Assembly (NCBI GenBank): GCA_016699105.1
Contig: CP064960.1
Location: forward strand, 264,727 to 328,726
Direction of reading: 5' to 3'
Source of the DNA: a bacterium
GTDB lineage: Bacteria; Patescibacteriota; Saccharimonadia; UBA4664
Length of the DNA stretch: 64,000 bases
Numbering within the stretch: position 1 is the first letter of the stretch; each line of letters starts with the position of its first letter. This document shows positions 17,347 to 35,800 of the stretch, one piece after another. The notes beneath the pieces are model-generated. The model was not told the DNA's origin, did no database searches, and saw nothing but the letters and a program-made list of their open reading frames with translations. Made by a program: the position numbers and the translations under genes.

Positions 17347-17621
17347 GTTGGAAATATGGGGGGAGAACTACGTGGAAAAGCCTGAGGATAGAGTGGGGAC
17401 AGTCTGTGGGAGGAATGGTAGTCGTCCACAAGACAGCAACCGACGACTCCAAAATATACACAAGGTTGTGCGCAGGTACTCCCGAGGATATACCCAAGTT
17501 GTACGCAAGTGCTGTGACCATTCCGAGCTTACCGTGAGCCACATTTGGACTTTTACCCAGAATCCACAGGACCTATGATTATGACTATGATTTATAGAGT
17601 AAAAAATAATAGGGTCAGAAC
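17347..17621. promoter_or_regulatory. dnaA-dnaN intergenic region with DnaA-box-like sites
   Basis: 'cgtccacaag' (~17427) and 'gaatccacagg' (~17560) are 7/9 matches to TTATCCACA. Confidence 0.3.
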
Positions 17622-18746
17622 TTGGGGAAAGATTTTATGAAACTTAGCCTAACACAAGAGAATCTTTCGAAGGCCTTGGCAAGCGTTGGTAGAGTGGTAT
17701 CGACGCGAGCAAGTTTGCCCGTGTTATCTCATGTATTACTAGCAACTGACGGGAATCGTTTACGCTTGTCGGCTACAAATTTAGAAATTGGTATCAACTA
17801 TTGGATTGGATCAAAGGTGGAAGAACAAGGTGCCGTGACGGTACCAGCTCGGTTAGTGAGTGAGTTTGTATCCAGTCTGCCTCATAGCACCATTGAGTTG
17901 TCGGCTGAAGATGCCATTTTGGTAGTAAAAGCTCCCAATTATGAATCGAAAATCAACGGTATAGCGGCAGAGGAATTTCCGGAGATTCCGACGATCACCG
18001 CGGATCCAGTTTTGCAGGTCGAAGCGTCGGCGCTGCGGGAGGCTTTGGTTCAGGTGGTAGTGGCAGCTTCCGCGGACGAGGCGCGCCCAGTACTGGCGGG
18101 GGTATATTTATACACCGAAGAGGATAACTTGTACCTAGTGGCAACCGATTCGTATCGTTTGGCGGAAAAAAGACTACCGCTGGCTAAGGTGCCGGACGAG
18201 GAGCTCAAAGTGATTGTGCCAGCCCGAACCATGCAGGAGCTGATGCGCTTATTGGCGGATGTGACGGAGCCGGTCGAGCTGTACATGGATGAAAATCAGG
18301 TAATGTGGCGGCTGGGTGATATTGAATTGGTGTCCCGGTTGATTGAGGGACAATTTCCGCCGTATCGGGGGATTTTACCAGAGCAAGCCGAAACATCGTT
18401 TGAGATAGATGTGTCTGAATTTATGCGTATTACCAAGGTGGCCAGTTTATTTGCCCGGGAAAGTGCTGGCAGTGTGAAGCTCGAAGTGCAAGCTGAGGGA
18501 CAGGTGCGCGTGGTTAGCGGTGATACTGAAGTGGGTGGCAATACGTCGGCGGCTGATTGTGAAGTCAGTGGTGATGACGCCGTGGTTTCCCTGAATGCGC
18601 GCTATTTGACTGACGCTCTGGGGGTGATGAAAAGCCAGGTAGTGATGTTTGCAACCAGTGGTAAAGACAAAGCCTGTGTGTTATCACCGGCTGGTGAAGA
18701 GGCGGCGGACGATTATCTTCACATCATCATGCCGCTGCGAACATAA
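17622..18746 (+). CDS. dnaN: DNA polymerase III beta sliding clamp
   Basis: 374 aa; begins 'MKLSLTQENLSKALASVGRVVSTRASLPVLSHVLL'; three-domain clamp length; gene order after dnaA. Confidence 0.95.
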   Translation: MGKDFMKLSLTQENLSKALASVGRVVSTRASLPVLSHVLLATDGNRLRLSATNLEIGINYWIGSKVEEQGAVTVPARLVSEFVSSLPHSTIELSAEDAILVVKAPNYESKINGIAAEEFPEIPTITADPVLQVEASALREALVQVVVAASADEARPVLAGVYLYTEEDNLYLVATDSYRLAEKRLPLAKVPDEELKVIVPARTMQELMRLLADVTEPVELYMDENQVMWRLGDIELVSRLIEGQFPPYRGILPEQAETSFEIDVSEFMRITKVASLFARESAGSVKLEVQAEGQVRVVSGDTEVGGNTSAADCEVSGDDAVVSLNARYLTDALGVMKSQVVMFATSGKDKACVLSPAGEEAADDYLHIIMPLRT

Positions 18747-18800
18747 GCATAGTTTACGTAGTCGCTTTGCAGTACAATTAAGGCAACGGATGGAGTACAT

Positions 18801-20486
18801 ATGAAGAAGTTTTTTCGTTGCGGCGCGTTGTTTGGGTCGGCAATACTACTGGCTCTGGCACTGGTAATACCAGTACCGGCTGAAGCAGCTAGTAATACTT
18901 GTGTCTGGACAGGCGGGGGTGGTGATACGAAATTTAGTACGCCAGCAAACTGGTCGGGTTGCGGCGGAGCACCGGTCAATGGGGTCGACCTTGTATTTGA
19001 CAGGACTAACCTAGTCTCGGCTGTTACCGTTGAGAATGATGTCCCAGGTCTAAGTGTCGGTACAATTTATAGCCAGCAGCCAGGTAGTGACTATAGTTAT
19101 TATGAAGCGAGCTTTAGTATAGGTGGTACGAACCCTTTGACGATTACTAAAGGTCTCACCGGAAATGCAGTCATTGCTATCCTGACTCCTGTGATATTGG
19201 GCGGAGATGTATCTATTAGCAGTCGTTGGATCTCGCTTGGCAATGTACTCCTCAATGGGAAGGATCTGACTGTAGATGGATCTCTTGGTAGTGACGGTAT
19301 CATTAGTGGACAAGGCAATATAATCGTAAATGGTGGCATGTATCTCGGCGGCAATAGCACCTGGACAGGAAACTTAACTATTAAAAATGGGGCCGGAGTA
19401 GATATTAGTTCTAACTTTAGTACTGCTCTTGGTGCAGCAACCAATAGTGTCGCAGTTGAGTCGGGAGGTACATTATATATTTGTACGCCGAACGGAGCAT
19501 CAATCCCTCAAAATCTGACTTTGGGGGGTGGCGACGAGTTGGCTTGGCAACTGGAAATTTCGAGCTGCTCTCAGAAAGGCAGTGAAATTTCCGAGGTAGA
19601 GGGATCGGTATCGTTTACGGGTCAACTTACTTTGACTGCCGATACTTGGGCATATACTACCGGGAGTACGACGTTTACCAAACCCATTAAGCCGGGATAC
19701 TCGATCTATCTTGTTGAAGGGTATGCTTTGCCGAATAGCCTGCATGTGTCATATGCAGGAGCGAACGGTGCGGCTAACTCTAGCAATGCCTCACCCACTC
19801 CTAGTACGTCTCCAGCTCCTATGGTCGTCACCGACAATCAGCCATCGACTGATGTGGAATTAGCAAGCGGCGAAGTATTGGTGGTTGACGGCGTCCGCGG
19901 CGAAGTTGTCATTGATGGTGGAACCCTCAAAGGTACTGGTAAAGTCGGTACCGTGACCATGCATGCCGGCGCGGTGGCTCCAGGTCACAGTCCGGGTGTG
20001 CTCCAGACTGGTGCGTTGAATTTTGAGGGTGGCACCTATCAGGTTGAATTAGGTGGAACTGCCAGTGGCGCATACGATCAACTGAAAGTAGTTGGAACAG
20101 TGTCGTTGGCCGATGAAGCTGGCCAAGCGGCGCTGTCGGTGGCTCATTGGCTCACGTTTCGGCCCCAGACTGGTGATGAATTTGTGATCATCGATAATGA
20201 TGGTGAAGACGCAATCAATGGAACGTTTAAGGGACTCGCGGAAGAGGCAAAGCTCGTCGTGGGTGATTTGACGTATGAGATTAGCTACGTTGGAGGAGAT
20301 GGTAACGACGTCACACTAACGGCCGCAAACGTACCGGCTGTATTAGGTAGTAGTGTTGGTGCGCCAACGACGGGTGTCGGTTTTGTGAAAACTCACCCGC
20401 TCCAGACGCTGGTTGTGACTTTGATGGTGAGTGCTGGTTTGGCGGCATTCGGTTTTGGTGTACGCCGCCGCTATGGCATCGGCTAA
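18801..20486 (+). CDS. secreted, probably sortase-anchored surface protein (beta-helix/adhesin-like)
   Basis: Signal peptide 'MKKFFRCGALFGSAILLALALVIPVPAEA'; Gly/Thr/Ser-rich repeats. C-terminus carries a hydrophobic helix plus an 'RRRYGIG' tail, i.e. a cell-wall sorting signal architecture. No canonical LPXTG ('...GAPTTGVGFVKTHPLQT...'). Confidence 0.5.
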   Translation: MKKFFRCGALFGSAILLALALVIPVPAEAASNTCVWTGGGGDTKFSTPANWSGCGGAPVNGVDLVFDRTNLVSAVTVENDVPGLSVGTIYSQQPGSDYSYYEASFSIGGTNPLTITKGLTGNAVIAILTPVILGGDVSISSRWISLGNVLLNGKDLTVDGSLGSDGIISGQGNIIVNGGMYLGGNSTWTGNLTIKNGAGVDISSNFSTALGAATNSVAVESGGTLYICTPNGASIPQNLTLGGGDELAWQLEISSCSQKGSEISEVEGSVSFTGQLTLTADTWAYTTGSTTFTKPIKPGYSIYLVEGYALPNSLHVSYAGANGAANSSNASPTPSTSPAPMVVTDNQPSTDVELASGEVLVVDGVRGEVVIDGGTLKGTGKVGTVTMHAGAVAPGHSPGVLQTGALNFEGGTYQVELGGTASGAYDQLKVVGTVSLADEAGQAALSVAHWLTFRPQTGDEFVIIDNDGEDAINGTFKGLAEEAKLVVGDLTYEISYVGGDGNDVTLTAANVPAVLGSSVGAPTTGVGFVKTHPLQTLVVTLMVSAGLAAFGFGVRRRYGIG

Positions 20487-21236
20487 ACGACAGCGGCTTG
20501 ATGGATTAGCTAGTCCGGTTCGTCGAACTCCGATCGAGCTTCCGGTACCTATACCTACATCTCGACGCACACGAAGGTGGCGGCTGGACTATGCTATCTG
20601 GATAGTAGCCTTCGCGATATTGGCAGGAGGTGCTTGGCTCAGCTATGACGCCTGGCGAGTCAACCGGGTGGTTGAACAGCAGGCTGAACAATTGATGGAA
20701 ACACCTAGTGGTAGTGAGTCTAATAATGTGCCAGTGCCCGATGAAGCTTCTCCACCGAGTGATTATTTGCAGTCATATCGAGTAGCGGCCGATCTACCGA
20801 GAGTATTGCGGATTCCTGGATTAAACGTTGAAGCCCGGGTGATGAGGGTAGGTGTAAACTCAACAATGAACTGATTGCCCCAGCATCGATATATGATGCC
20901 GGTTGGTATGAAAATAGTAGCCGCCCAGGTGATGCTGGTGCGGTGTTGATCGACGGGCACGTGGCGGGTCCAACGAAGCCGGGTGTGTTTGCGAAATTGG
21001 CCAATTTGCGACCGGGCGATACGCTCAGCGTGGAAACGGGCGCCGGTCGACTCTATACCTATAAAGTGATTAAACTCCAGTCTTATGGGGCCGATCGGGT
21101 AGATATGGCGGCGGCGTTAGCTCCCGTGACGCCAGCTAAGCCAGGTTTGAATTTGATCACATGTGCCGGCCAACCTGATGCTCGGACGCATCTCTATGAT
21201 AGGCGGCTGGTGGTCTTTACCGAGCAGGTTAATTAG
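20431..21236 (+). CDS. srt: sortase (transpeptidase), interrupted by one frameshift near 20860-20880
   Basis: ORF 20431..20874 gives the TM anchor and N-terminal part. ORF 20943..21236 gives the catalytic part with the TLxTC motif ('LNLITCAG') and 'RLVVF'. The reading frames join as '...VGVNS|NELIAPASIYDAGWY...'. Confidence 0.65.
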
Positions 21237-21267
21237 ATAACGCCGTCTTTTCAGATACAATACCTGT

Positions 21268-22329
21268 ATGGTGTTAACTCGTTTGGAACTGACTAATTTT
21301 CGCTCGTATACAGCGGCCATTTTTGATTTGCATCCCGAAGTAACGCTGGTGGTAGGGCCAAATGCGACGGGTAAAACCAATTTGCTCGAGGGATTGTATG
21401 TATTGGCAGCCACCAAAAGTTTTCGGGCCCGGGATCGCGATGTTGTCCATCACGAAGCTGATTTTTACCGGATAGTTGCCCGGGGAGAGATGGAAATGGC
21501 ATTGGCTGTTAGCATGGCAGCTGGCGTTAGTAAAAAAGTCACGCATGATGGTGTCAAACGGACCTTGGCGGCGCATATCGGCCGATTACAAGTAACACTA
21601 TTCGAACCGGCTGAACTGACTATGTTACAAGGTCCTCCAGATGGACGGCGGCGGTATCTCGATTTTGTGTTGTGCCAAACTGATCGATCATACCTGTTGG
21701 CTTTGATGCAATACCGGCGCGTGCTCAAGCAACGCAATGCTTTGCTCGATAGTAAACAATGGTCAGTCCCTCCCAGAGACCAGTTGTTTGCCTGGAACGT
21801 TAAATTGGCTGAGCTGGCGGTTGATATCTGGAAAAAACGTAGTCGCTTCCTGGAAGTCATCAACAAGCAATTGCCGCAATTGTATCAGGAGATTGCCGGG
21901 GAACCGGTTCCGGTGTCCCTGGAATACCAGCCGAGCGTCACCGGCGATTACGCGGCCAATTTCCTGGATGAGCTTGAGCGTTGTCTGGATCGAGACTTTG
22001 CCGCTGGATTTACGACTATTGGCCCGCATCGAGAGGATTTCGGGGCCAAGTTTAAGACTGGTCAGGTGGTCAATGTGGCATCACGCGGTGAAGTGCGGAC
22101 GGTGGTGCTGGCGCTCAAGCTGGCGGAGTTGGAGTATGCCCAGGCGCAGACCGGAGTGCGTCCCCTCTTGTTGCTCGACGACGTTTTCAGTGAGCTTGAT
22201 AAGCAACGGCGGGCATATTTACTCGACCGGTTGGGTGGTTATCAAACGGTAATTACGACGACCGATGCGGACGCGGTGACCAAAGAATTCCGCACCGATC
22301 ATAGTACGATTTGGACTGGTGAAGTGTGA
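21268..22329 (+). CDS. recF: DNA replication/repair protein RecF
   Basis: 'LTNFRSYTAAIFDLHPEVTLVVGPNATGKTNLLEGL' Walker A; SMC-like signature near the C-terminus ('LLLLDDVFSELD'). Confidence 0.9.
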   Translation: MVLTRLELTNFRSYTAAIFDLHPEVTLVVGPNATGKTNLLEGLYVLAATKSFRARDRDVVHHEADFYRIVARGEMEMALAVSMAAGVSKKVTHDGVKRTLAAHIGRLQVTLFEPAELTMLQGPPDGRRRYLDFVLCQTDRSYLLALMQYRRVLKQRNALLDSKQWSVPPRDQLFAWNVKLAELAVDIWKKRSRFLEVINKQLPQLYQEIAGEPVPVSLEYQPSVTGDYAANFLDELERCLDRDFAAGFTTIGPHREDFGAKFKTGQVVNVASRGEVRTVVLALKLAELEYAQAQTGVRPLLLLDDVFSELDKQRRAYLLDRLGGYQTVITTTDADAVTKEFRTDHSTIWTGEV

Positions 22330-22627
22330 TTGACTCTAGTTATTTTGACCAGAAACGCCAACAGCTGGGCATGGACAGGGTTGATGTCTTGGAGCGGGTG
22401 CAGCAATTGCTCGATGAATGGTATCCAGGACGCGTCAGAGCCCGCCAATGGCATCGGGGGTACTGCGACTGGTTACACCCAGTGCCAGCGTTGCAGGGTC
22501 GTTGAGAATGCGTCAAATGGAACTTATTGAGTTGGCAGGTCTGACCACGGATTCCCCTGCTACCCCTGACGGATTACCAGCCCGGGTGAGAATTATGATA
22601 AGCATAAGTTCAATTTCGGCTCATTGA
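22326..22627 (+). CDS. DUF721-family (recF-associated, YaaA-like) small protein, frameshifted
   Basis: GTG start overlapping the recF stop. The second frame gives 'GVLRLVTPSASVAGSLRMRQMELIELAGL', matching the DUF721 'DGvL.v.v.ssawaqeL...' core. Confidence 0.4.
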
Positions 22628-22628
22628 G

Positions 22629-23386
22629 CTAATTGATTGGCAAATATTTGCCACCAAATTCGGTGACGCCCAGCGACTCGCGGAAGTACAGTTGGTAGCG
22701 CTCACTGGTATAGCCATTGGCATTGAGCCAGACGACAGCCGCGGCGCGACTGGCTCGAATATATCTAAGGTTTGAAGGATCAGTTGCAGTCGCTAATGGG
22801 TTGGTGAGATTGATGAACATGCTCGTGATAGCGAGCGGTATTTTGGTTTCCAGGGGTTTGGCGCCAGATATTCGATTTCGTAATTATCGGTTATGAGTGG
22901 CAATTTAGTGGTCAGACTAAAATTGGTTTTGAGCTCGTCTGGATTCGTAAATTGAGCATGAATGGCATCGGCGGCAATTTGGTTGGCGGCCGCAGTTGGC
23001 GTTAGTTCTTCGGTTTCAACGAGCTTGAGAAGCCAACGGTTGTTTTTGATATCTGATACGCATAGCAAATATCCATTTGTCGTTTGATGCTGTCCACAGA
23101 AATTGTAAGGCCCGAAACTATACTCTTGAAAACCAGATTGGTCATGCGGGTTGATGCGGAAAATGCTTTTGCCTTGGACAACTACTATCTGACCTTGATA
23201 AACCAAAAAATCCGACACTGATTTGATAGTAAATGCATTGTCTAAACCTTCGTCCTGGATCTTGAAGGTTTGAAGGCTATTGTTGAGCGCATTGAATGCA
23301 CATAGCATTTGATTGCCACAAAACAACAATTTGGAGATTTTGCCTGCTGTTGTGAAGTGTCGAGTAGTTTTACCAGGTGATGACAA
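22629..23386 (-). CDS. hypothetical protein (two ORFs, 22793..23386 and 22629..22820, probably one gene with a frameshift; may continue into 23515..24231)
   Basis: Adjacent same-strand ORFs overlap in different frames; no known motifs. Confidence 0.3.
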
Positions 23387-23514
23387 AACTATTTCGGACG
23401 TATTCTTACTATGGTCTTCTTCCGATTTTTCGGAGAAATAAGCTATGGCAACTGATTGCTCAAATGTGGTGATGGCTGCTGGCTTGGCAGCTTTGGTCTG
23501 TGCGGCTTCGAGCG

Positions 23515-24231
23515 TTATGGTCTGAGGGTCTGTACCAAAACCGGTGTAATACTGAACTTGGGAAAATCAGCATTGTGGACCAAGAAACCGGAAAAATATG
23601 GCGATAAGCGATACTCGATGCCAGATCGCAAACCTTTAATGGATTCAGTTTTGGTCGGTTCAATTTTGCCGGTAAATAGATGCAGTAGAGGCCCGCTGTC
23701 GCCAATGGCTTGGCTGAGGACAATTGTACCAATACTGGTATCTAGGCTATCCATAAAGCGACCACGAATGGCGGTGTATTCTTGATTAGTGTTGGCCATG
23801 GTAGCAGTGGCTGGTGTATGGAGTGTCATGTAATTTTGATTGCCGGTGCAGGTGCTAGTCAACGCAATGTTGGCGATGAGATAGGCACAGTTTCCGGGAT
23901 CGTCGGCAATGACATTGCGGGCAATTTGCGACTGGAGGCCAGCCGTGACGTTGGTTGTAGCTAGGAAAGGAGCGGTATCAGCAAGAAAGAAGCGCGATTT
24001 CATGCCCTGAGTGACGACGATGCGATATGAGCCCTTGGGCACAATTTTGCTATACGAGCTAGCAGACGTTTTAACGGTGGTAGCTTTGCCTCCAGCCTGG
24101 TTTTCGATGGTGACAGAATATTCGCCGGAAATATCCGGAATTGAGATACTTAAGCGGGAGTAATTCCAGAGACTGGCGATAGCTGCAACGAAAGTAATGG
24201 CCAGGGCTAAGATGAGAATTTTTGCTTTCAT
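23515..24231 (-). CDS. secreted hypothetical protein
   Basis: Signal peptide 'MKAKILILALAITFVAAIASL'; 238 aa; last gene of the minus-strand T4SS operon. Confidence 0.35.
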   Translation of the reverse strand: MKAKILILALAITFVAAIASLWNYSRLSISIPDISGEYSVTIENQAGGKATTVKTSASSYSKIVPKGSYRIVVTQGMKSRFFLADTAPFLATTNVTAGLQSQIARNVIADDPGNCAYLIANIALTSTCTGNQNYMTLHTPATATMANTNQEYTAIRGRFMDSLDTSIGTIVLSQAIGDSGPLLHLFTGKIEPTKTESIKGLRSGIEYRLSPYFSGFLVHNADFPKFSITPVLVQTLRP

Positions 24232-24255: not shown

Positions 24256-25539
24256 TTAGACGCCACCGCGGACATCCCAGTGCCAAGGTTCGCGGGGATT
24301 TTTGAGCTCGTAGAAGCCATATTTTTCGCCATTAGCGAGTAGCCACTTATACATACCAGCGCTGGTGTTAGAGCTAAAACTAAAGTCGATGGCTAACCCC
24401 GTTTGGTGATAGGAGTAGCCGGGTCGGCCGGCCATTGGTGGTCCGATTTTGGCCCAGAGATACTCCTGATGAGCCATGGAACGGAATGTAGATGAGGCGG
24501 CTATATCAAAGTTTCCCCAAGTGTTGGCACTACTGTCGCGATACGCGATGGCATCAGTGATCAGTTTGAAAAGCGCTCCAGAGACGCGCGAGTTGACCAC
24601 AGCGTGGCCATCTCCAAACTGATTACACTCTTGATTTGAACATGGGAAATTAGGAATGGCACAAAGACGAATCTTGATTAATTTACCATCATGGTAACCA
24701 TCATGAATACCGGCGTCGGTGGTGCCGTCAGCACAGGCTATGGCTGTGGAATCGTCGTAAATGTGTTCCCAGTCAATTTCGGCTGAAGCTTGACCAGAGG
24801 TAGAGGGGCAATTCGAGGCTGTAGTGCCGGTAGTTTCGCTGGGGATGGAAGCATCTGGCGTAACTGTGCTCGATGGCGGGAATAAATTCTTTTCTTTGAT
24901 ATATTTAATAACTGCTTGCTGGATGGAAATGTTTTTGCTGACGTAATTGGGGTCGGTGGCATAGCCGGCATTGAAAATGGCAGTTATATATTTGGCAGGG
25001 TCTCCGGGGAAATTGAGGGCCGCGGCGTAGCGGCTATTGGCATGGATGAACTGGCCGTAGCCCGCAAAGCCGGCTTCAGCTGTCGGGTACGCCCGAAACT
25101 TAGCCGATACGGTAACTGTTTGACCATTGATGACTTCTTCGGTATTGAGGGTGACGGTATCGCCGGTCCAGTTGCTACCGGCTTTAATGCCAAAGAAGTT
25201 GTTATATTGCCGAGTGAGGAGTGACCGACCATAGCCTGATTCGAGAGCTGCTTGGGCAATAATTGCTTCGTAAGGAATGCCGTATTGTTTGCCGATAGTA
25301 AAGGCTGCCTGAGCATATTTGTCGATAAACTCAGTGAGTGACAGTGTAGCTTCGGCTGCTTCAGTGTTATTTGAGGTTCCTCCAGATGTTGAGCAGGTTT
25401 CTGCTATATAGTTATCGTACCAATAGGTCTCGTTGGTGACTGAGACATCATCGCGATTCCAGATGGCTTGTGCGACGGGCGCTGTGGCTAGTTGGCTCGT
25501 AATAATGAGGGTGAATATGAGGCTGAGGCGTCTGAACAT
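24256..25539 (-). CDS. bifunctional peptidoglycan hydrolase: N-acetylglucosaminidase (FlgJ/LytD-type) plus M15 (VanY-like) D,D-/L,D-peptidase
   Basis: Signal peptide. 'AQAALESGYGRS...NNFFGIK' is the glucosaminidase signature. C-terminal 'GYSYHQTGLAIDF...EPWHWD' is M15 zinc peptidase. Confidence 0.8.
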   Translation of the reverse strand: MFRRLSLIFTLIITSQLATAPVAQAIWNRDDVSVTNETYWYDNYIAETCSTSGGTSNNTEAAEATLSLTEFIDKYAQAAFTIGKQYGIPYEAIIAQAALESGYGRSLLTRQYNNFFGIKAGSNWTGDTVTLNTEEVINGQTVTVSAKFRAYPTAEAGFAGYGQFIHANSRYAAALNFPGDPAKYITAIFNAGYATDPNYVSKNISIQQAVIKYIKEKNLFPPSSTVTPDASIPSETTGTTASNCPSTSGQASAEIDWEHIYDDSTAIACADGTTDAGIHDGYHDGKLIKIRLCAIPNFPCSNQECNQFGDGHAVVNSRVSGALFKLITDAIAYRDSSANTWGNFDIAASSTFRSMAHQEYLWAKIGPPMAGRPGYSYHQTGLAIDFSFSSNTSAGMYKWLLANGEKYGFYELKNPREPWHWDVRGGV

Positions 25540-25542: not shown

Positions 25543-28125
25543 TTAACTTCCCCACTTGAGTGACTGATACATCTCAGACATGCCAGGCACATCGCCGACT
25601 GGGAAGATTTCTATCTTGTAACCACCTTCATCTTCGTTGAAATAGACATCGTAAATGAACTGACCAGGACCAGAGCCGGCGTTCTTTACCATAAATTCAT
25701 TCATTGTTTTGATGTATTCGGAGTTATCTTTGGTTTGACCTTGAGTGTTGTTGGCTCCCCACTCCGGGAAAGCTAACGGCTTGCCATGGCTGAGAGCAAA
25801 TTGACGCCAAGCCTCGATTCCGATTGGGGATCCATCACTGGTTTTGGCATCATGGGGTGTATCCCAATCGTAGGTATCGGGTCCGACTACATCAACGCAG
25901 GCGTCCCCAGGGTAGGCGGCAATAGGTGTGGCTGCACCACCGAGCGTGCCATCATTAAATGACCAAGTCATTTTCAGACCAGCTGCGTGTGCCATGGTGG
26001 CGACGTTACAAAACGTGGTTTTATAAGCAGCTTCTTCGCCTGGCATGACGGCCCATTGGGAGAAATCCATATTAGCTTCGTGAGCAAAGCGGACAAACGA
26101 CAGACCTTTACCGGCGCGATGAGTCTTGATATTGTTGATGGCTTCTTGCCAACGCGCATTGTAAGCACCACTAGCAGCGGCTGACCATGATTCGCCGTTT
26201 TGTTTGAAGATACCACCAATAGCAACATCGACGGCGCCGTTGAAATAATCATAAGCACTAATATTGCTGGCATCGGTGCAGTCAGGAATATCGCACCAGG
26301 TACCAACGATAGTAACAGGTGATTTGCGCCATGTCCCTAGATTGGGATTCAAATCATGCTTTCCATCCTCGAAGCTAGCGCCAGACATCCAGTTGGCGGT
26401 CAGTGGAGCGCTGGTCTGAACTTGTTCGACGAATCCGCACGGGCCTGGTTCGCCACCGGAGCCGATGCCGCCGTCGTCATTGGAATGGCCGCTGCCGGCG
26501 CACATACCTAGGGCCAGGCCGGTGTCAGTCAGGCACTTGTTAACTTTACTGGGGTCGCGGGCGTCGAAAGTGGTGGCGATCATTGATCGGCCGTCAGCTG
26601 AGGGCAATGCCATTTTACCTTCTGGGGTGACGCAATCGTAGATGTCGATGCGCTTATCGGGACCAGGGTAGTTGCCATTAGTATCCGGTGGACCGTTGAT
26701 GTCCTGAACGGCTACGTTTAGGTTGGTGTCGTTGAGTGTCTCTTTGTCGATAGCATAATGGACGACACCCACCGGCGACTTGAGGCTCGGTGGATCGACG
26801 GCTAAGCTGGCCGGGGTAAACGACTGTAACGTATTAGCAAAGTAGTTAACCGGATGTAGAAACAGCGTCGAAGCAAGGCTCGTAAATTTATTGGTGGCCG
26901 AAGCTGGTGTGGCGGGTAGAGCTGCCAGTAATCGCGATCCCATAGAGCCAGGTGTCTCCCAAGCTAGTAAACTGGCAAAGGGTCCCTGGGCGGCCAAATT
27001 GCGCTGGCGTTCAGCGGCAAACTGAGTGGTCTGCTCATAGCTGGCTTCGTACGATACCATGGCAGCACCGAGGTTATCGCGCAGGAAATTATTGGCAATT
27101 ATTTCCCAGCCGCCATCAATGGCATTGCCAAGAGGTGCCCCCCATTCCCCGTTATAGACGAGCCCAAATATTTTTTCGTAGATTACACCTAGCAATTCGG
27201 CTAAATGCTCGCCAACCCAATTGATGGCATCACTCAACCCCGTGATATCAGCAAAAAAGCTCAGAAGTGCGCCTATGCCCGTATTCCTGACGAAGACCAT
27301 AATAGCGTCGGTGATTTTATCGAGAGCTGTGCGGATAGTACATAGACTCGTGTGTTGGAAGCTCAGGCTGGTGAGGCGGCGGTACCACAGGGTCCACTGT
27401 TCGTACTCAGACATGACACGGCCTTCAGCGGGAATGCCTTGAAATTCTGGCGAACCAGCGTAGGTAACACCGCAAAAACCATAATTATTGGCTTTGGAGA
27501 TGAAATTTGAATCGGTACCGACCCGCTTGTCTTCGGGTATTGTGATACCGCCGTCGACATTGTTTGAATTAGTGCGCTGGTAAGCATTAGACTTTTCGAC
27601 GCCATCAATCATCTGCATCAAGACATTGATTTGGCTGGCCGTAAGCTCATCGGCTTTCATTTGGTCTTTGAGGCTAGCCCATGTTTGAGCGACTGTCACA
27701 TATTGGATCGAGCGTAAGGTCACGCCAAGTTTAAACCAGGTGCCATCCCAGATGAAATGGTCGACGTCGGCCGCTAGTGACACCCAGCCAATGATGGGTA
27801 AACCTTTGAGGGCGGCTTTGGCGGCAGTTTCGCCGATCACTTTTGCCAATATACTTTCGATGACTTTGCCAGATTTGGTTTTGAGGTCTGAATACTGTTC
27901 CCGTAGATTCTTTTTACTCTCGTCTTGGACTTCGCGTTGCTCGTCGTTTCTGGGTGCGGCTGCAACTGGCTTAAATGACGGATCACCATTGGGGTCGCGG
28001 CTTCGGACATATGGATCTTCGTCTTGGCAGTCATCTGGGCTTGAAACACAGCCTAGTGACTCGATGGTTTTATCGTTGGGGCCATCGAGCGCCAATGATC
28101 TCGCTTGAGTTTCGGTGTCATGCAT
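25543..28125 (-). CDS. very large secreted protein with a C-terminal GH26-like (mannanase-type) glycoside hydrolase domain; may be fused to the upstream ORFs by frameshifts
   Basis: The C-terminal ~300 aa contain 'VRFAHEANMDFSQW' (GH26 'RFgHEmN' acid/base motif), 'YPGDACVDVVGPDTYDW' (GH26 'yPGddyVDwvGvDvY') and 'LAFPEWGAN' (nucleophile region). 860 aa. Confidence 0.5.
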   Translation of the reverse strand: MHDTETQARSLALDGPNDKTIESLGCVSSPDDCQDEDPYVRSRDPNGDPSFKPVAAAPRNDEQREVQDESKKNLREQYSDLKTKSGKVIESILAKVIGETAAKAALKGLPIIGWVSLAADVDHFIWDGTWFKLGVTLRSIQYVTVAQTWASLKDQMKADELTASQINVLMQMIDGVEKSNAYQRTNSNNVDGGITIPEDKRVGTDSNFISKANNYGFCGVTYAGSPEFQGIPAEGRVMSEYEQWTLWYRRLTSLSFQHTSLCTIRTALDKITDAIMVFVRNTGIGALLSFFADITGLSDAINWVGEHLAELLGVIYEKIFGLVYNGEWGAPLGNAIDGGWEIIANNFLRDNLGAAMVSYEASYEQTTQFAAERQRNLAAQGPFASLLAWETPGSMGSRLLAALPATPASATNKFTSLASTLFLHPVNYFANTLQSFTPASLAVDPPSLKSPVGVVHYAIDKETLNDTNLNVAVQDINGPPDTNGNYPGPDKRIDIYDCVTPEGKMALPSADGRSMIATTFDARDPSKVNKCLTDTGLALGMCAGSGHSNDDGGIGSGGEPGPCGFVEQVQTSAPLTANWMSGASFEDGKHDLNPNLGTWRKSPVTIVGTWCDIPDCTDASNISAYDYFNGAVDVAIGGIFKQNGESWSAAASGAYNARWQEAINNIKTHRAGKGLSFVRFAHEANMDFSQWAVMPGEEAAYKTTFCNVATMAHAAGLKMTWSFNDGTLGGAATPIAAYPGDACVDVVGPDTYDWDTPHDAKTSDGSPIGIEAWRQFALSHGKPLAFPEWGANNTQGQTKDNSEYIKTMNEFMVKNAGSGPGQFIYDVYFNEDEGGYKIEIFPVGDVPGMSEMYQSLKWGS

Positions 28126-29260
28126 TTTGGTCTCTTTATCGACCTCGTCTTCTTTTTGTCGATGCCCCAGCGTTTGACATCGTAGGATTTGGATAGATAA
28201 TAGCGCACCGATCGTCGCTGCAAGATGCGAAAACCCTTATATCGATTTTCGGTAAATCTGGAGATTGTCGCTTCTAGACTGTTCCCAGCTGGGTTGGTTT
28301 TGAAGATTTCTTTTAGTTGACCAATATCATTGGCTTCAATGACTTCACCGCTGCCGCTCGTGAATCTGATGGAGCCGGCTGTACTACCACGCTCGATTTT
28401 AATATTGTGAGCTGTCATCAATTTCTGCTCAAATTGATCTTTGACCATATTACCCCAGAGCATCTTGATGATGTTGGAATTGGTATACATGGGATCGGAC
28501 TCGAGCGTGCCATTGAGGCGAGCAAATAAATATCGGTACACAATGATCTTGGTGCGGTGCTCGGCGTAAGCCTGCATTTTTCTTCTTGATATCCAATTAC
28601 ATTGTTCATGAAAGATTCAAGTTTGAGTGGCAAAAAGGCAATGGTAGAGATAACGAGTGCAATCACAATTCCGAGACCACCACCTCCGGCAATAAGCGAT
28701 TTGCGGTGTTTGCTGGCAAAGTCAAACGTGCGGCCAGCGATACGACGGCCGATAGGACCATTGGCAGCGGCGTTAGCATAGGCATTTCTAGCTCCGGCAT
28801 TATTGGCGAATGAGCCTGGTTTTCCAGGTTGGCTGGGCGTGGCGGTAGTGGTGCCACCTGGCGCCGAGCCACCGGATGCTGCAGCATTGGAATCGGTGGC
28901 GCCGGTGTTTTTGGAACTTGGGCTCGTGGAGTTGGCGTTGTTGATCATCTGATTGCCACGATCATCACCATGGACGGCGTCAAGCGGCTCATTTCTGGCT
29001 GAGGGTATTTCATTGGATCGAGACATTTTGGCTGGCTCATTATCGGCAGCGCCATCGTTTGGGGCTGAAGGTTGGACAATGGTTGCCGGCTTCGGAGCTT
29101 GGTTGCCGTCTATGAGCTGAAATTGTGACCGGCGAGCCTTGGCCTCGGAGTTAACGGCACGGTCGGCGGCCTGCTCGCGGACAGCTTGTAGAAATCGACT
29201 GTCTTTCGGCGGCTCATTATTCGGACTTGATCTGAGGCTGCCAGCAGAACGTAATGCCAT
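28053..29260 (-). CDS. membrane-anchored protein (two overlapping ORFs joined by a probable frameshift in a T/A homopolymer near 28578-28590), possibly the N-terminal part of the 860-aa protein
   Basis: ORF 28418..29260 has a Gly/Asn/Ala-rich low-complexity region and the TM segment 'LIAGGGGLGIVIALVISTIAFL'. ORF 28053..28577 continues in another frame. Both frames stay open across the 28053-28125 overlap with the next gene. Confidence 0.35.
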
Positions 29261-29266: not shown

Positions 29267-31155
29267 TTAAGCTCCTTGCTCCGACGGGGCAACTGCTTCA
29301 TCTGGTGCGGGAGTGGCATTAGCTTTGTCAGCAGGGTTGGTACTGATCAAACTGGCTTCAGTCTCGGAAGCTAGAACTCGGATAATGACGTGGTTGAGTC
29401 CAGCAAAGAACAGGCCTTCACCCACTGGGAATTCGGTAAGCCGAGCTTTTTCCTCATTGGTAAGTTTAAACGTTTCACCAATGATATCGACGGCGGACGG
29501 TGCTTGCTTGAGGAGAAGTTGCAAGGAAGAGTTGGCCACTACCGCCCGCCCCATTTTGTTGCTCAGGAAATCCTCAACGTCTTGCGAGATTGTTGTCAGA
29601 CCCAGGAAATATTTACGAGCCCGTTTGGCTAGACTAAACATGAAGGCTGCTGAATCGTCGTATTTCATGAGCTGCCAAGCTTCGTCAACTATTAAGATGC
29701 GCTTGCGGCGATCAGATTTGACTTTATTCCAGATATAATTGAGTACGATATACATGCCAATGGGGCGAAGTTCGTCTTCTAGGTCGCGGATGTTAAAGAC
29801 GAGGAAGGGGTTGTCAATCTCGACGTTTGATTGTTCAGAGAAGATTCCCGAGAATGTACCGGTAGTAAATTTGCGAAGTCGCATGGCCAGATCTGGACCG
29901 TTGCCAGTCATTGACGCTAATGTGTTGTATAGGTCGTTCATGGTTGGCGGGGTGGCATTGTGTGTGAGTGGATCGCGGGTGATACCGGCACGGGCGTAGG
30001 TGTTGATGATAGCAAGGTCGAGATCAGCGTCTTCACTCGGTGTGAGATTGGTCATGCTGGTGGCACCAGTGGAGTTGGAGACAGTGGCACCACCAATCAT
30101 CAGGCGCAAGAGCCCATGGAGCGTGATGATATTAGCCTGGAGGGCATTGTCGGCTTCGTCTTGATCAAAAACGCGTGGTAAATCAAAAGGGTTGATGCGC
30201 GTCTGACTAGCCAGCGATAAGCGTAAGTACGTTCCACCGACAGCTTCACAAAGGGTTTTATACTCGTTTTCTGGGTCGATCACAATGATCTCGATGCCCA
30301 TCATGAGCGAGCGTAAAGCCTCGAGCTTAATTGAGAACGATTTACCAGCTCCGGATTTGGCGAAGACAACCATATTGGCGTTTTCGAGAGAGAAGCGGTC
30401 GAATAAGACGAGACCATTGTTGTGGCGGTTCAGGCCGTAGAGGATGCCTTCGTTGCGACTAAGTTCGGCAGAAGTGAACGGGAAGCTGGTCGACAAGGCA
30501 CCGGTATCCATGTTGCGGGAGATTTGGAGCTGGTCATTCGCGATGGGGCTGGTAGAATTGAAGCCCTGCTCCATTTGCATGGTAGCCGCTTTGGTGTACA
30601 CCAACGATTGGCCGAAGATACCCTCGATCTTGCGATTGAGGTCGGTCATGGCATCGAGCGAGTCGGCGTACATAGTTAGATACATACCAAATCGAAAGAA
30701 GCGCTCTTCTCCGACTTGGAGCTTGTCACGCAACTCCTCAGCATCCTGGAGTGCAGCCTCGAGACCAGGGTCACGTACTTTGCCCTTCTCTTCATTAATG
30801 GCATAAGACGCTTCCATTTGGGTGACTTTTTACGCAGGTTATCGAGGACTACCCGCGACTCAACGGGGTAAATGTAGAGCGAAATGTCGATAATCTCGTC
30901 GAGGTTGATGATGGGCGATAACCAACCGGTGAATACTTGGCGAGGGTAACCGTAGACGTATAGGGTTTTGCAATAGCGTTTGCCGATGCGGACGTAGTTG
31001 GCATCAATTTCGAGAGACGACGGCGCGATGAGATCGCGCATGGTGATGACGCCCTGACGATAGATGAGCTCAGCTTCGCGTTGTTCTAGAGCCTGCTGGT
31101 AGGCAGCCAGAGCCTGGGGGTCGACTTTGGGTTTGGATGGGCCGAATAATCCCAT
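29267..31155 (-). CDS. virB4: VirB4/TrbE/CagE-family T4SS ATPase (main body), interrupted by one frameshift near 30815-30830
   Basis: ORF 30676..31155 gives 'IDANYVRIGKRYCKTLYVYGYPRQVFTGWLSPIINL' (the CagE_TrbE_VirB region). ORF 29267..30817 gives Walker A 'VVFAKSGAGKSF', Walker B 'ILIVDEAWQL' and 'NMDTGALSTSFPFTSAEL'. Confidence 0.8.
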
Positions 31156-31748
31156 TAGAACGGACCTCCTTCGATAGTACTATGGGGCGCGCGGCCATCG
31201 CCTTTGAGGACGACTGGTCCGGTCAGTTGTTCGGCATCAATCAACTTTTGATTGTGGGCGACGTCGGGGTTGTACCAGGTATAGTACAGATCGACGAGTT
31301 CTTGCGTGCCAAGAGCTAAGGCTCTAATACCAATTTGCCCCAAACCGCTGGTGACCAACGCCATACGCTCAGACAACTCTTGCTTGTAGGCTTTGAAATC
31401 CTCTTCGGTGACCGTGATGTCTGCTGGTGTACTGTAGGCATTTTTGAGGTTTTTCACGAGCGCTGGCGTTTTGCCTGAAACAACTCCAGGGAAATATGGC
31501 ACCACAATGTAGATTTGCTTGTCCATAATGTTGACCTCGTCGACCAACGATTTGACGTTGGCGATGTAGTCGTCCATGAGGGCACCTAATAGTTCGTTAG
31601 CTTGCTCGGTGCGCTTGGTCTGCATACGCTCGATGTAGGCCGAAAGGTCAATACGTTCGGAACGGATAACTATTTGAATCGGGAAATGAAGTGAATTGAG
31701 GAAGCTCTGATACGCCATCTCAATGCCTTGTTGTTCCTGGCTACTCAT
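31155..31748 (-). CDS. VirB4 N-terminal domain encoded as a separate ORF (stop/start overlap TAATG with the next piece)
   Basis: 'FPIQIVIRSERIDLSAYIERMQ...IYIVVPYFPG' matches the VirB4 N-terminal 'lqvhvlRrpvdl...ylt' region that normally precedes the 'IEIDxDYxRIG' segment. Confidence 0.5.
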   Translation of the reverse strand: MSSQEQQGIEMAYQSFLNSLHFPIQIVIRSERIDLSAYIERMQTKRTEQANELLGALMDDYIANVKSLVDEVNIMDKQIYIVVPYFPGVVSGKTPALVKNLKNAYSTPADITVTEEDFKAYKQELSERMALVTSGLGQIGIRALALGTQELVDLYYTWYNPDVAHNQKLIDAEQLTGPVVLKGDGRAPHSTIEGGPF

Positions 31749-31877
31749 GAGCTCGAAGTTGATGGCGCTACCGAGGATGACTCCCGAATGGAACCATCGC
31801 GCAAAATTACGACACCGTCCTTAATCTCTGAGATTAAAAGACTTTGCTGTGTACTTTTTCCGGCTTTGCTGGCGGTA

Positions 31878-32702
31878 TTAGCTGGCACTCGTTGCTGTCT
31901 CCACAGTTGCGCCTGCTGTTGGACTCAAGCGGGTAGCTTGGGCGGCAACAGAGGCAATGCTCATTCCCTCACTCTGGGTGGCTAATCGTAGTATATCGTC
32001 TTGGCCTAAAGCTGTCACGCCGCTTATGCTTTTGGCGGGTGTTTCAAAATGCGATGGCTTGGGCAGGTCGGTTCCAGGTACCATATTAGCGACAGCCGAT
32101 TGTCGAACCTGGCTAGCTGATTGTTGGAGCAATACTGATAGATTTTGAGCTAATGGGCTATTCTTGAGGTCGAGCATGTCGGTATGAGGGGCTGTTATGT
32201 TTGACGGTGTGGCATCTGGTTGGACGATACGAGCGGAACTTGGGGTGCTCGGCATGATGAGATGAGTATTGGTGTCGGAGGATTGAGGAATATTCCAGCC
32301 GCGGGAGTCTATAAGCGTGGCTAGTTTTTCTAGTTCACTAATAACCAACTGGGGATTGCGTTGGGTGATTTCAGCCTTAAGTGCGGTTGGTGTTATATGA
32401 AATGTTTCGAGATTTTCTTCTTTGATCCACAGACGTTTGCGGGGTGCGGCAAAGAAACCAACGACTGCAACTAGCAGATGCTCGAAGTCTTGGCCATCGC
32501 GGCGGAAGAACGCTAGCAACAAGAACAAGATTGCCGGCGGTACACCAATGACAATGAACCCGGCAATCAACTGGCGGAAAATGGCAAAAGTAATAATGAT
32601 CCAGCCTAAACCGATCATCATATAGATGAATTGCCGAAACGTCAGCGGGCCTAGGATATGGTCTTCGGCTTCAACATTTTGGGGAACAGTATATTGACCC
32701 AT
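31878..32702 (-). CDS. PrgI/VirB3-like T4SS membrane protein
   Basis: N-terminus 'MGQYTVPQNVEAEDHILGPLTFRQFIYMMIGLGWIIITFAIF' matches the PrgI-family pattern (M.Y..VP...edkI.g.LT.RQ followed by two TM helices). Located directly upstream of virB4. Confidence 0.5.
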   Translation of the reverse strand: MGQYTVPQNVEAEDHILGPLTFRQFIYMMIGLGWIIITFAIFRQLIAGFIVIGVPPAILFLLLAFFRRDGQDFEHLLVAVVGFFAAPRKRLWIKEENLETFHITPTALKAEITQRNPQLVISELEKLATLIDSRGWNIPQSSDTNTHLIMPSTPSSARIVQPDATPSNITAPHTDMLDLKNSPLAQNLSVLLQQSASQVRQSAVANMVPGTDLPKPSHFETPAKSISGVTALGQDDILRLATQSEGMSIASVAAQATRLSPTAGATVETATSAS

Positions 32703-32807: not shown

Positions 32808-35800
32808 CTAAAGATTATTGTTAGTCTTGTATCCAAGAACAATTTTTTCGAGTGCTTTTCGATGTTGTTCTTCTGCGCCTGGGGTACTTCCAAATTGTGC
32901 CTTGAATCTGTCAAGTACAGCTTGTCGTGGAGTGCCCATACTTTTGCCATCGGCATTAAACAAGAACCTATACATGGCATCGTAGTCCGCAGGAGTCTGC
33001 TTTGGATTTATATTACCTTCAGTCATTATCTGCTTGATGTTGGATACCGATTCGCCGATCATCTTACTTCTCTTGGAGTCAAGATCTGCGAAATCAGGAT
33101 GTGTTGATGGTACTGGAACAGGCGCCAAAGCGAATTCAAACAAATGCTCTTTAGTCTTGTAATCCATGGCAGCAACTTCACCGGCTTTGGCATTTTCAAA
33201 GGCGGCTGCTGGACCCTTGACGATGTCTGGTCGCTTATCAGCATTCACCGTTGAGACGACCCGCTGGAAAAAGCTGTTGGCTGAAAAGTCAGTATCACCA
33301 GCGGCACGGGCGTCGGCTTCCAGATTGGCAGCGATGGTTCGATCGACGCGTACGTTTCCATCGGTACCGAATGTTTCTTTTAGTAATTCACGAACTTTTT
33401 CAGAACCACTGGTTGTCAGTGCTAGTGCTGAAGTGAGAGCCGTAAACTTTGCCCGGTCGCCCGTTTTGAACGCATCAACCGCTTCAGTGTATATTTTATC
33501 TTTATTTCCACTATTGGGTTTTAGGGTGCTTATCGGAACCTCCATACCTGTACTGGGATCCAGGAACATACTGCGTCCAGCTTCAGCCACGAGGCTTTCA
33601 AACTGTCTTTCGCTCGCTGCTTTTCGGGCTGTATCAACTTTTTCGCCATAAGTTTTATCGGTTTGGCTTAATCGAACTTGTTGATCAGCTTCTTTGGCGG
33701 CAAGCGATGCCTCTGAGTCTCGTCGTGCCATTTCGAGCTGAGCGGTAGCTGCTGCTTTTGTCGGTGATTTATATGCCCGTTCTTGAGCGATTAGTGTTCC
33801 TTGAGCAGCAGCTTCAGATCTTTGTCCTGTGTCAATTCCGGCGAGTGTTGCCGAGCCAATGACATCAGCTTGGGCACTATCGGCCAGGCTTGTTAGAATC
33901 TCGGCTTGAGCTTTTTCACGATTAGCTGATGGGTTTCCAGTTGTCATCCCGCGGAGAGCGGCTTCATTATTCAAGTAGTCTTCCATTGCTTGCTCGTCGC
34001 TCACTCCGGGGGCGAATGCTCTAGCTTGAGCAAGTAAGGCAGCTCCGGCAGTAGCTCCGATAGCGGCTGTTACTGACTGGTTTTTGCCAACTGCTTGTCC
34101 GATAGAACCGGCTTGACCCTGCGCTGCCGTCAAATAGGCGCCTTCTGCGCTTGCGTCATGATAGATACGACTTGCATCGGCATCAGACACAGATCCAGGC
34201 AGGTTGGCAGCAATATTTAATTCTGCCTGTCGCTTGATGGCGTCGTCTGATATACCTGCCAGGCTGTGTTCTTCGGCTTTTTCCCGAGTCATGCCGGTAT
34301 TGCTAGCAAGCCGTTGTTGTATATCCTTTTCACGTATTCTTTCAGATTCTTTGGCAATCCTGATTTCCCTTTACCTTTTTCGAAACCGTCAACTTCACCA
34401 CGAGCTTTGGCGATTTGTAATCGAGTGTTGAAGCCAGCTTCGCCCGATCCTTGATAGCAATTTTTTGCTGATATCAGCACGTACATTAGCTCGATCAGCA
34501 GCCGATGCTGTGCTTGGGTCTATGCCGTTTTTAATTAAGACCCTATCTTCTGCTTCGGTTACTTCTTGCAGTCGTTCACCTACGGCCATGTCTTTGGTGA
34601 GTTGATCATTGGTAGCTTTGAAGGTGGCATCGTCAAGTTGCTCGGCGGTTGACGGCCGAGTAGGACTTTGTCCATTGTATCCACGGACAGATCTGACGGC
34701 ACCAGTACGCTGGGCACTGGTTGCAACGGCCGAATCTTCACCGCGCACACCGGCAGCGATTAAGCGATTTTGAGACTTGGTGTCCGCGAAGTGTCGCCAT
34801 TGTTAGCTGCCAAGATATCGTCATTTTCAATCTGATTTCCTTTCTTTTGGCTCATGACTTGACTGCCAATGCTCTCTTGGGCTTCTCGTCTGGCCGCTTG
34901 TTCAACCTCACGATCGGACATGTGGCCTTCAGTTGTACCTGGATGGCTACTCTGTTTCGACGTGCCTGACGCGCCGCCGATAGATTGCCGCGTTGTTGTA
35001 AGGCAGCTGCATCCATGATGGTAGCAGCTGATTCGTCGCGGTGAGTATTGTAGTCGATTTGACCTTGACGAAGTTTACCGCCTTCATCGAGCACGCCTTC
35101 TCGAGCCGAGACGCGAGCATTGGTTTGACGGTACTGCTGAATCCGATTTTTAGCATTATTGCGTTGATCATCGGTGGCTGTCAGGGGATTAATGCCCATG
35201 TGCAATAACTCAGCATCTTCGAGATGCTTCTGGCCGTTAATCCGACCCTCTGTCTTGCCTTTATCGTCACTGAGACTATCGATCTGGCTTTTGCGGGCAT
35301 CTTCGATAAGATCGCCGGTACTAGGCGCGTTGCCATTATATTTCGATTCAGCAGTTCCTGTCCCTGAGCCATAGAGACTGGCAGCGCTTTTGCGACTAGA
35401 TTCCAAGCCTGCTTGATAGCTGCCTTTGGCAAAATTTACCATTTTTCGGGTAGATCTGCGCCTTCGATGGCATCGACGGTTTCCATTAGTCCAGCTCGAT
35501 CAGATCGGCCTTTCGTAATGCCCTGTAGTGCTGCGGTAGTTTCTGCGTCGACGCGTTGCTTGTTGGTTTCACCGGTACGAGTAGCGCCAGCTAGTTTGGA
35601 AGCATTGATAGCACCTTGGGTTTTAAAATGCAGCGCTCGCAGCTTCTTCAAATTTAAGTTTTTCAGGTCATTACCCTTACCGCCGAGAAAGCCGCCATGG
35701 CCAGCTGATTTCATTGCGACACGCTGCCTGAAATTCTTTGATAATTTTCCGCCAAGGCTAGTTGGCTGTTCTCGATCGATTTCTTTGGCGCGTTGGACAG

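Follow-up and report, generated by a model that had tools for sequence, protein, structure and literature searches.

Which polymer would a type IV secretion system (T4SS) have to cut if one of its associated proteins ends in a glycanase? The question is raised by a large gene in a 64,000-nucleotide stretch of a Saccharimonadia genome of lineage UBA4664 (assembly GCA_016699105.1, contig CP064960.1, positions 264,727 to 328,726), called the window below. The gene lies directly downstream of virB4 and near dnaA, dnaN and recF. A sequence-only reading of the window had placed a glycoside hydrolase family 26 (GH26) domain at the C-terminus of the 860-amino-acid (aa) open reading frame (ORF) of this gene. 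Family profile, homologues and fold model bear out the placement. By sequence and predicted fold, the last ~290 residues are a genuine family-26 glycoside hydrolase with both catalytic Glu kept. The closest characterised enzyme is CtLic26A, the CelH lichenase (beta-1,3-1,4-glucanase) of Clostridium thermocellum. The gene is made up as follows.

25543..29260, minus strand: full-length gene once its frames are joined, about 1,239 aa; the orthologue P0001 matches three ORFs in three frames
29260-28418 (280 aa), 28577-28053 and 28125-25543 (860 aa), minus strand: the three ORFs of the gene in the window
28697..29260, minus strand: N-terminal low-complexity stretch of about 188 aa, poorly conserved (30-39% identity in the clade), presumably cytoplasmic
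28625..28696, minus strand: single strong transmembrane helix LIAGGGGLGIVIALVISTIAFLPL, aa 189-212 (Kyte-Doolittle peak 2.34; kept in P0003 and P0082)
28576..28581, minus strand: frameshift 1, A5 here versus A6 in intact orthologues, GAAGAAAAA-TG
28152..28157, minus strand: frameshift 2, A5 here versus A6 in intact orthologues, GACAAAAA-GAAGAC
26482..28624, minus strand: juxtamembrane region and conserved helical core, presumably extracytoplasmic (156 representative homologues, AlphaFold2 model)
26434..26481, minus strand: conserved linker NDDGGIGSGGEPGPCG, the junction beyond which the C-terminal module varies by lineage
25546..26403, minus strand: GH26 catalytic domain, C-terminal, ~290 residues, aa 575-860 of the 860-aa ORF (sequence and fold searches)
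26077..26079, minus strand: Glu683 (GAA), predicted general acid/base, in R679-F-A-H682-E683; aligns with CtLic26A E109
25870..25878, minus strand: Asp750-Thr-Tyr752, the GH26 D-x-Y motif, +1 and -1 subsites (alignment)
25762..25764, minus strand: Glu788 (GAG), predicted nucleophile, in KPLAFPEWG; aligns with CtLic26A E222

The GH26 domain falls under the Pfam cut-off. PF02156 scores 13.4 bits (E 0.049) on the 860-aa ORF, with an alignment limited to aa 680-755, and its gathering score is 20.2 bits. The orthologues P0001-P0003 likewise have no precomputed Pfam match. A hidden Markov model (HMM) scan relying on the threshold only could therefore have scored the domain negative. PF02156 is too narrow for the GH26 subgroup of the window, and the other family tests override the threshold miss. 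When the last 345 aa were compared with all PDB sequences by phmmer, the 19 best of the 20 matches were GH26 chains, with CtLic26A and Cellulomonas fimi Man26A at the top (E about 2.5e-4). The last 310 aa found 78 database homologues at 34-41% identity, 85-99% coverage and E values down to 1e-47, and nearly all carry a precomputed PF02156 match; the best of them (E 1e-47) shows 38% identity over 91% of the query. From 28 of these sequences (alignment A1) a profile was made that matched 41 PDB sequences, all 41 of them GH26. CtLic26A is the best and also the sole full-length match of this profile (E 5.8e-21), aligned end to end over residues 6-284 of 290.

The predicted fold leads to the same family, so that the structure prediction proposed as a check came out in favour of the domain. 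The AlphaFold2 model of the GH26 domain (pLDDT 85.8, pTM 0.86) shows the strand/helix alternation of a (beta/alpha)8 barrel. In Foldseek its best PDB matches are the CtLic26A structures (E 7e-15, TM-scores 0.68/0.76), followed by AlXyn26A (a mixed-linkage xylanase), mannanases of GH26 and one beta-1,3-xylanase. The 27 highest PDB matches are GH26 structures or constructs made from them, and clan GH-A families other than GH26 appear at E 6e-6 or worse.

Two other identities were considered and rejected. Structures of the clan GH-A families GH79, GH1, GH5 and GH17 match the model far worse than those of GH26. GH113, which the sequence-only reading had named as an alternative, shows no similarity in Pfam, in the PDB sequence searches or among the top 50 Foldseek matches, with no search made against a GH113 model itself.

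Both predicted catalytic residues can be placed. In the HMMER alignments H682-E683 pairs with H108-E109 of CtLic26A, and E788 pairs with E222, residue numbers being counted from the alignments. We take E109 of CtLic26A to be the acid/base and E222 to be the nucleophile, roles that are said to come from the work of Taylor et al. in 2005. The proposal had been staked on the conservation of the catalytic Glu, and both are nearly invariant in the 28 sequences of A1. The two signatures first quoted for the domain are also present, although the nucleophile was not among the residues named then. RFAHEAN (aa 679-685, 26071-26091) holds the acid/base, as proposed. The other, YPGDACVDVVGPDTYDW (aa 738-754, 25864-25914), is the conserved strand-6 motif and not the site of the nucleophile; E788 lies in KPLAFPEWG at 25756-25782. 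The two Glu, the Arg and His of RxxHE and the D-x-Y motif are kept in all three members of the window clade (P0001-P0003), which have 59-97% overall identity.

Residues kept across GH26 are, in BoMan26B numbering, R197, G204, W206, D261, Y263 and W314 (PMC6556568). Their equivalents in the window were read by motif position and spacing, BoMan26B itself being outside the alignment. R679 (the Arg of RxxHE), D750 and Y752 stand at the motif positions of R197, D261 and Y263. For His136 of BoMan26B no reliable equivalent could be placed in the window domain from motif positions.

The protein that carries the domain is longer than any of its ORFs. P0001, intact at 1,239 aa and 97% identical, has a start identical to that of the 280-aa ORF and then spans the other two. 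The earlier guess of a gene of more than 1,200 aa including the upstream membrane-anchored ORFs is thus confirmed, and so is the position of the GH26 domain at the C-terminus of a large anchored protein (about 1,240 aa, one transmembrane helix) in a T4SS cluster. A basic KHRK precedes the helix directly, and Cys residues in the core are invariant across relatives in the alignment. Because of the basic residues and the conserved Cys, we infer an N-in, C-out topology.

The core of about 700-740 aa is nearly all helices (AlphaFold2 pLDDT 75, pTM 0.77), and Pfam gave no domain for it, nor did PDB or BFVD yield a significant fold match. It may be a new fold or an assembly domain specific to the Patescibacterial T4SS. 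The linker that follows has the consensus DDGGLGGxGDPGPCG (alignment A3). On the whole protein, Pfam, NCBIfam and PHROGs gave nothing but the sub-threshold GH26 match. Pfam and NCBIfam found no SLT/lysozyme-like or CHAP/NlpC-P60 domain on the 1,239 aa, and Pfam found no peptidoglycan peptidase domain of M15 or M23 type. Within the clade no other segment of the protein is as well conserved as the GH26 domain, which has 92% and 73% identity to P0002 and P0003 compared with 69% and 54% for the core. This strong conservation argues for selection on function.

What stands at the C-terminus of related proteins shows how unusual the window clade is. Word-indexed searches with the 860 aa or the core alignment returned three clade members only, since low-complexity words crowded the candidates, and a genome-collection scan with an 8-sequence alignment gave two loci only. 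An exhaustive HMMER search was required to reveal the core family, which comprises 156 representative relatives of 650-1,586 aa, with homologues outside the clade reaching E 1e-95. Among 152 family representatives, the GH26 HMM matches only P0001-P0003. The nearest relatives, P0082-P0089 and P0093, have LAS/M15-type motifs (H..G.A.D ... H.H) after the linker; the tails of P0082, P0084, P0089 and P0093 open with the same linker motif and continue with LAS-type peptidase motifs. Other relatives carry VanY, M23 alone or after one or two Exo_endo_phos domains, CHAP, SGNH/GDSL with VanY, or Glucosaminidase with a C39-like peptidase, and one lineage carries EEP, GH43 and M23 together. EEP modules (nuclease/phosphodiesterase-type) are frequent in the family (P0082-P0230).

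The suggestion that such a module is unusual at a T4SS is borne out, about 150 core relatives having M15/LAS, M23 or CHAP peptidoglycan peptidases instead. GH26 replaces the C-terminal peptidoglycan peptidase on the window protein, and an M15 domain sits on the adjacent gene. This neighbour was described beforehand as a conventional glucosaminidase plus M15 hydrolase, correctly so (Glucosaminidase E 5.8e-33, VanY/M15 E 1e-9 in Pfam). Distant family members have C-terminal tails homologous to its VanY half (P0139, E 9e-39, 41% identity), indicating that the peptidoglycan-cleaving set is kept and that GH26 is an addition. On domain predictions, then, the window clade retains a muramidase/glucosaminidase and a DD-peptidase with GH26 on top. 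Across the family, the gene next to the large protein is a second variable hydrolase slot, occupied by lysozyme-like plus VanY or M23, GH3 or transglycosylase-like enzymes. The comparison shows the large protein after virB4 as a modular carrier of predicted envelope-degrading enzymes.

The substrate is harder to approach. The GH26 branches comprise two of mannanases, one of xylanases, one of lichenases and one of unknown activity, and beta-1,3-xylanases also fall within the family (PMC6556568). The substrate is thus not readable from family membership. Among characterised enzymes the lichenase CtLic26A comes nearest by profile and fold, with only 18-20% identity. The match to GH26 mannanases is confined to the central 100-160 residues (profile against PDB), with Foldseek TM-scores of 0.4-0.6. 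The label 'beta-mannanase-type', given to the domain at the outset, is therefore not upheld.

The subgroup of the window domain is uncharacterised and consists mainly of secreted proteins on contigs of 71-73% GC, the named ones being from Kineosporiaceae and Acidimicrobiales. P0244 (locus L008) is the closest GH26 relative outside the clade, a stand-alone, lipoprotein-like protein of 415 aa with 51% identity on a contig of 62% GC. The genomic contexts of two actinobacterial GH26 relatives gave no pointer to a substrate. At L005, a Kineosporiaceae metagenome-assembled genome (MAG), two paralogous GH26 genes of the window subgroup lie side by side.

The surroundings of the gene in the window are as follows.

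15973-17346, plus strand: dnaA
17622-18746, plus strand: dnaN
21268-22329, plus strand: recF
24256..25539, minus strand: Glucosaminidase/lysozyme-like plus VanY (M15) hydrolase, 427 aa (Pfam, E values as above)
29267..31155, minus strand: VirB4-like ATPase, 629 aa if intact, split by a homopolymer deletion at 30832 (NCBIfam conju_CD1110, E 3.5e-94; intact in L007)
31155-31890, minus strand: TraC-like gene, frameshifted
31878-32702, minus strand: PrgI
32808-37447, minus strand: giant VirB6/TrbL-like gene, in pieces
37595-38788, plus strand: three VirB2-type pilins (T4SS_pilin), divergent from the cluster

A 495-aa gene, the two-domain hydrolase, the large gene, VirB4, TraC-like, PrgI and the VirB6/TrbL-like gene thus form one set on the minus strand. 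The assignments from the TraC-like gene to the pilins rest together on Pfam, synteny with L001 and tblastn. The cluster is the oriC-proximal Patescibacterial T4SS of Quinonero-Coronel et al. (PMC12102498), and in Southlakia epibionticum the oriC-proximal T4SS is essential for epibiotic growth (PMC10633639). The same order of PrgI, TraC-like, VirB4, large protein, second hydrolase and recF-dnaN-dnaA is found in L001, L007, L009, L010 and L011. The closest species-representative genome with the protein is named 'uncultured Candidatus Saccharimonadales bacterium', and more distant core-family members come under the names 'Patescibacteria group' and 'Candidatus Saccharibacteria'. Between the window and L001, the P0003 genome, the neighbouring hydrolase (24256-25539 against 13807-15081) is 36% identical, compared with 59% for the large protein and 73% for its GH26 domain, so that the neighbour evolves much faster.

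Some further features of the window lie outside this argument. The three-pilin array adjoining the VirB6-like gene agrees with the pilin arrays reported for Saccharimonadia. On the plus strand between dnaN and recF (within 15973-22329) lie a secreted protein of 561 aa, which has a hydrophobic anchor at its C-terminus, and then a sortase. In L001 and L011, recF, dnaN and dnaA adjoin directly, apart from one small ORF that separates dnaN from dnaA in L011. The surface-protein/sortase pair thus has the look of an insertion into the origin region that is specific to this lineage. At 6156-13496 on the minus strand, an intact ORF of 2,446 aa combines RHS repeats and a GLEYA domain with three PA14 domains (E 3e-42) and might encode a giant adhesin or a polymorphic-toxin-like surface protein.

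Is the gene alive in the genome of the window? Two frameshifts split it into three ORFs, recorded by NCBI as three proteins on a 1.32-Mb MAG contig (QQR52850.1, IPG36_01880; QQR52851.1, IPG36_01885; QQR52852.1, IPG36_01890), each called 'hypothetical protein', which could point to a decaying pseudogene whose domain is not expressed here. L007, a 7.1-kb contig from another sample with 98.6% identity to the window, speaks otherwise. The DNA alignment shows four unpaired single-base deletions in the window, and all four lie inside homopolymers: G4 to G3 at 31782 in the TraC-like gene, one in an A-run at 30832 in VirB4, and A6 to A5 at 28576 and 28152 in the large gene. A few mutually compensating gaps near 27.3-27.4 kb, in a divergent stretch, keep the frame. 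The deletions also break the TraC-like and VirB4 genes, whose counterparts are essential in S. epibionticum, and frameshifts also split the VirB6-like gene, the 495-aa gene and others. Another eight members of the 90% cluster, all of them from other samples, keep the intact length of 1,239 aa; intact orthologues range over 1,239-1,265 aa. No premature stop or other decay was found within the frames of the gene. Given the homopolymer pattern and the intact orthologues, the frameshifts are probably errors of the long-read consensus rather than decay, and the gene is probably intact in nature. We find a pseudogene scarcely credible.

Frameshift-broken genes elsewhere in the window are the VirB6-like gene, in five pieces (32808-37447), the 495-aa gene downstream (23003-24231) and a 98-aa gene (22326-22591). 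Two ORFs likewise make up the sortase gene (20431-21236), which is probably frameshifted. With this pattern, ORF-based annotation of the genome is unreliable.

These observations can be joined into a model, in which we think it reasonably probable that the protein is a membrane-anchored carrier whose predicted GH26 beta-glycanase acts with the T4SS on a non-peptidoglycan envelope polysaccharide, plausibly that of the host. The one N-terminal transmembrane helix would anchor a bitopic protein in the membrane of the parasite. About 1,000 residues would then lie outside the cell, comprising the helical Cys-containing core, the DDGG...PGPCG linker and an enzymatic 'warhead'. In most lineages the warhead would be a peptidoglycan peptidase (M15/LAS, M23 or CHAP), sometimes after EEP, SGNH or GH43. 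In the window clade it would be a retaining GH26 beta-glycanase with E683 as predicted acid/base and E788 as predicted nucleophile, and the M15 peptidase would be supplied by the neighbouring lysozyme-like gene. GH26 would cut a beta-linked envelope or capsule polysaccharide other than peptidoglycan where the T4SS and its pilus cross the envelopes, beside the muramidase/glucosaminidase and DD-peptidase, which would handle peptidoglycan. The envelope cut is most plausibly that of the host bacterium carrying the epibiont.

Several points weigh against this model. The evidence fits action on the envelope of the host and on that of the producer alike. The initial suggestion that the enzyme might clear a secondary wall polysaccharide of one or the other is plausible. 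At 18-20% identity, the nearest characterised GH26 enzyme is too distant for its specificity to be carried over. Some GH26 relatives are secreted enzymes that bear dockerin, NPCBM or fn3 modules, and these modules and the uninformative genomic contexts would fit an origin in ordinary foraging for polysaccharides just as well. Read by motif spacing, BoMan26B Gly204 is replaced by Met and Trp206 by Phe at the +1 subsite in the window clade, and the Trp near strand beta-8 (BoMan26B W314) is Tyr; the Gly and Trp after the acid/base are retained in actinobacterial GH26 relatives. Homology to SEML1_0007, a protein of S. epibionticum compared below, rests on position and architecture, the sequence comparison covering P0082-P0089 and P0155.

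Some of these points lend themselves to other explanations. The GH26 domain might act on the surface of the producer itself, trimming Saccharibacterial wall polysaccharide or capsule for the T4SS and the VirB2-type pili as a VirB1-type 'space-maker'. The protein is anchored in the membrane of the producer, several cluster-encoded pilins must cross its envelope, and the hydrolases of Gram-positive T4SS act on the wall of the donor (reviewed in PMC12102498). However, the nearest lineages have no glycanase at this position, so that a lineage-specific self-polymer would be needed, and about 700 extracellular residues before the enzyme would give it a reach past the wall of the producer; we regard self-trimming as unlikely. 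Less likely again is a nutritional or matrix glycanase, releasing oligosaccharides from environmental or floc beta-glucan, mannan or xylan, for which the T4SS protein would be merely a convenient anchor. Patescibacteria are thought to live on the products of many glycoside hydrolases (PMC11665869), the dockerin, NPCBM and fn3 modules of the domain relatives are typical of polysaccharide degraders, the source of the genome is a large collection of MAGs, and genes like P0001 turn up again in many metagenomes. Yet GH26 takes exactly the place that peptidoglycan peptidases have behind the conserved linker, and the operon is that of an essential T4SS beside oriC; no sugar transporter or downstream catabolic gene is adjacent, and the other modules of the slot (M23, CHAP, SGNH, EEP) are envelope-directed. 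As for a catalytically dead GH26 fold that only binds, as a lectin-like glycan anchor, the three substitutions named above and the sub-threshold Pfam score would fit it, but the retention of both Glu, the RxxHE Arg and His and the D-x-Y motif in three clade members, in the most conserved part of the protein, makes it very improbable.

The model of a GH26 carrier acting on a host envelope can be taken further. Saccharibacteria grow on Actinobacteria. The swappable module (M15, M23, CHAP, SGNH, EEP, GH43 or GH26) might be a host-envelope 'key' for each lineage, with GH26 captured from a high-GC actinobacterial, host-like donor and cutting a beta-glycan of the host wall or capsule so that the T4SS and pilus reach the host membrane. 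We put this forward as a doubtful extension. If it is true, the type of module would predict the host range, and the essential T4SS would be a host-penetration device.

The carrier matters in any case for a machine that is conserved class-wide in Saccharibacteria, lies beside oriC and is essential for epibiotic growth, and whose role has been described as completely unknown (PMC11665869). The finding suggests that the secretion machine of this parasite cuts a sugar polymer other than peptidoglycan too. The GH26 domain offers a tractable soluble piece of 290 residues, and its substrate would tell which envelope layer, and whose, the machine breaches. It was missed by curated-threshold annotation ('hypothetical protein' in GenBank), and the homopolymer errors hide the full gene as well. 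GH26 itself is already known, as is a Saccharibacterial T4SS-linked 'peptidase' by structural annotation and a transposon sequencing (Tn-seq) phenotype. In the literature searched, no link of GH26 to a Saccharibacterial or any other T4SS was found; neither a protein of this T4SS-linked kind whose one enzymatic module is a clan GH-A glycanase nor the swappable-warhead picture of the family appears to have been described there.

The closest known system is that of S. epibionticum ML1. SEML1_0007, a protein of 1,113 aa encoded directly downstream of virB4, has a Hedgehog/DD-peptidase domain at residues 951-1105, and the next gene, SEML1_0006, encodes a lysozyme-like domain with a cysteine protease (PMC10633639). 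Both genes were scored essential for epibiotic growth by Tn-seq (Wang et al. 2023, Cell; PMC10633639). The two loci share a large 'hypothetical' protein after virB4, a lysozyme-like gene next to it and an enzyme domain at the extreme C-terminus, and by position and architecture, which is how we compared them, the window gene is the predicted counterpart of SEML1_0007. They differ in the enzyme, SEML1_0007 ending in a DD-peptidase (M15/LAS) and the window protein in GH26.

PrgK of pCF10, TraG of pIP501, CwlT of ICEBs1 and TcpG, VirB1-like proteins of Gram-positive conjugation systems of the MPF-FATA type, are likewise T4SS operon-encoded modular hydrolases with an N-terminal anchor and an extracellular enzyme part, and they are needed for the passage of the machine through a thick wall. 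They carry SLT/muramidase, CHAP/NlpC-P60 or LytM domains against peptidoglycan, whereas the window protein is without these in Pfam and combines a family-specific helical core of ~700 aa with a clan GH-A glycanase. P0136, from the sister lineage with EEP, GH43 and M23, is nearer in design. It has the same core and a non-peptidoglycan glycoside hydrolase in the region of the C-terminal modules, and its locus likely has VirB4 upstream (cut and unannotated on the contig) and has recF downstream, as in the window. Its GH43 is an inverting five-bladed propeller and its terminal M23 is kept, whereas the window protein has GH26 as its sole enzymatic module.

For the domain alone, CtLic26A (PDB 2bv9, 2vi0, 2cip) has the same compact GH26 barrel of ~280 residues and shares the RxxHE, YPGD and D-x-Y motifs. 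After the acid/base it reads ANGDWYPW where the window domain has ANMDFSQW, and its WF at strand beta-8 is YF in the window. CtLic26A belongs to a secreted, cellulosomal degrader of plant glycans, whereas the window domain stands at the end of a membrane-anchored protein from a T4SS locus. The closest relatives of the domain are P0244 and the secreted GH26 proteins of high-GC Actinomycetota such as P0017 of Kineosporiaceae, with 36-51% identity over 85-99%. They share GESWSAAASGAY, RFAHE, YPGDxxVDVVGPD, GKPLAFPEWG and IYDVYFN with the window domain. Each of these relatives stands alone as a protein of 350-540 aa with a signal peptide, on contigs of 62-73% GC and not linked to T4SS genes, whereas in the window the same type of enzyme forms the end of a predicted membrane-anchored carrier.

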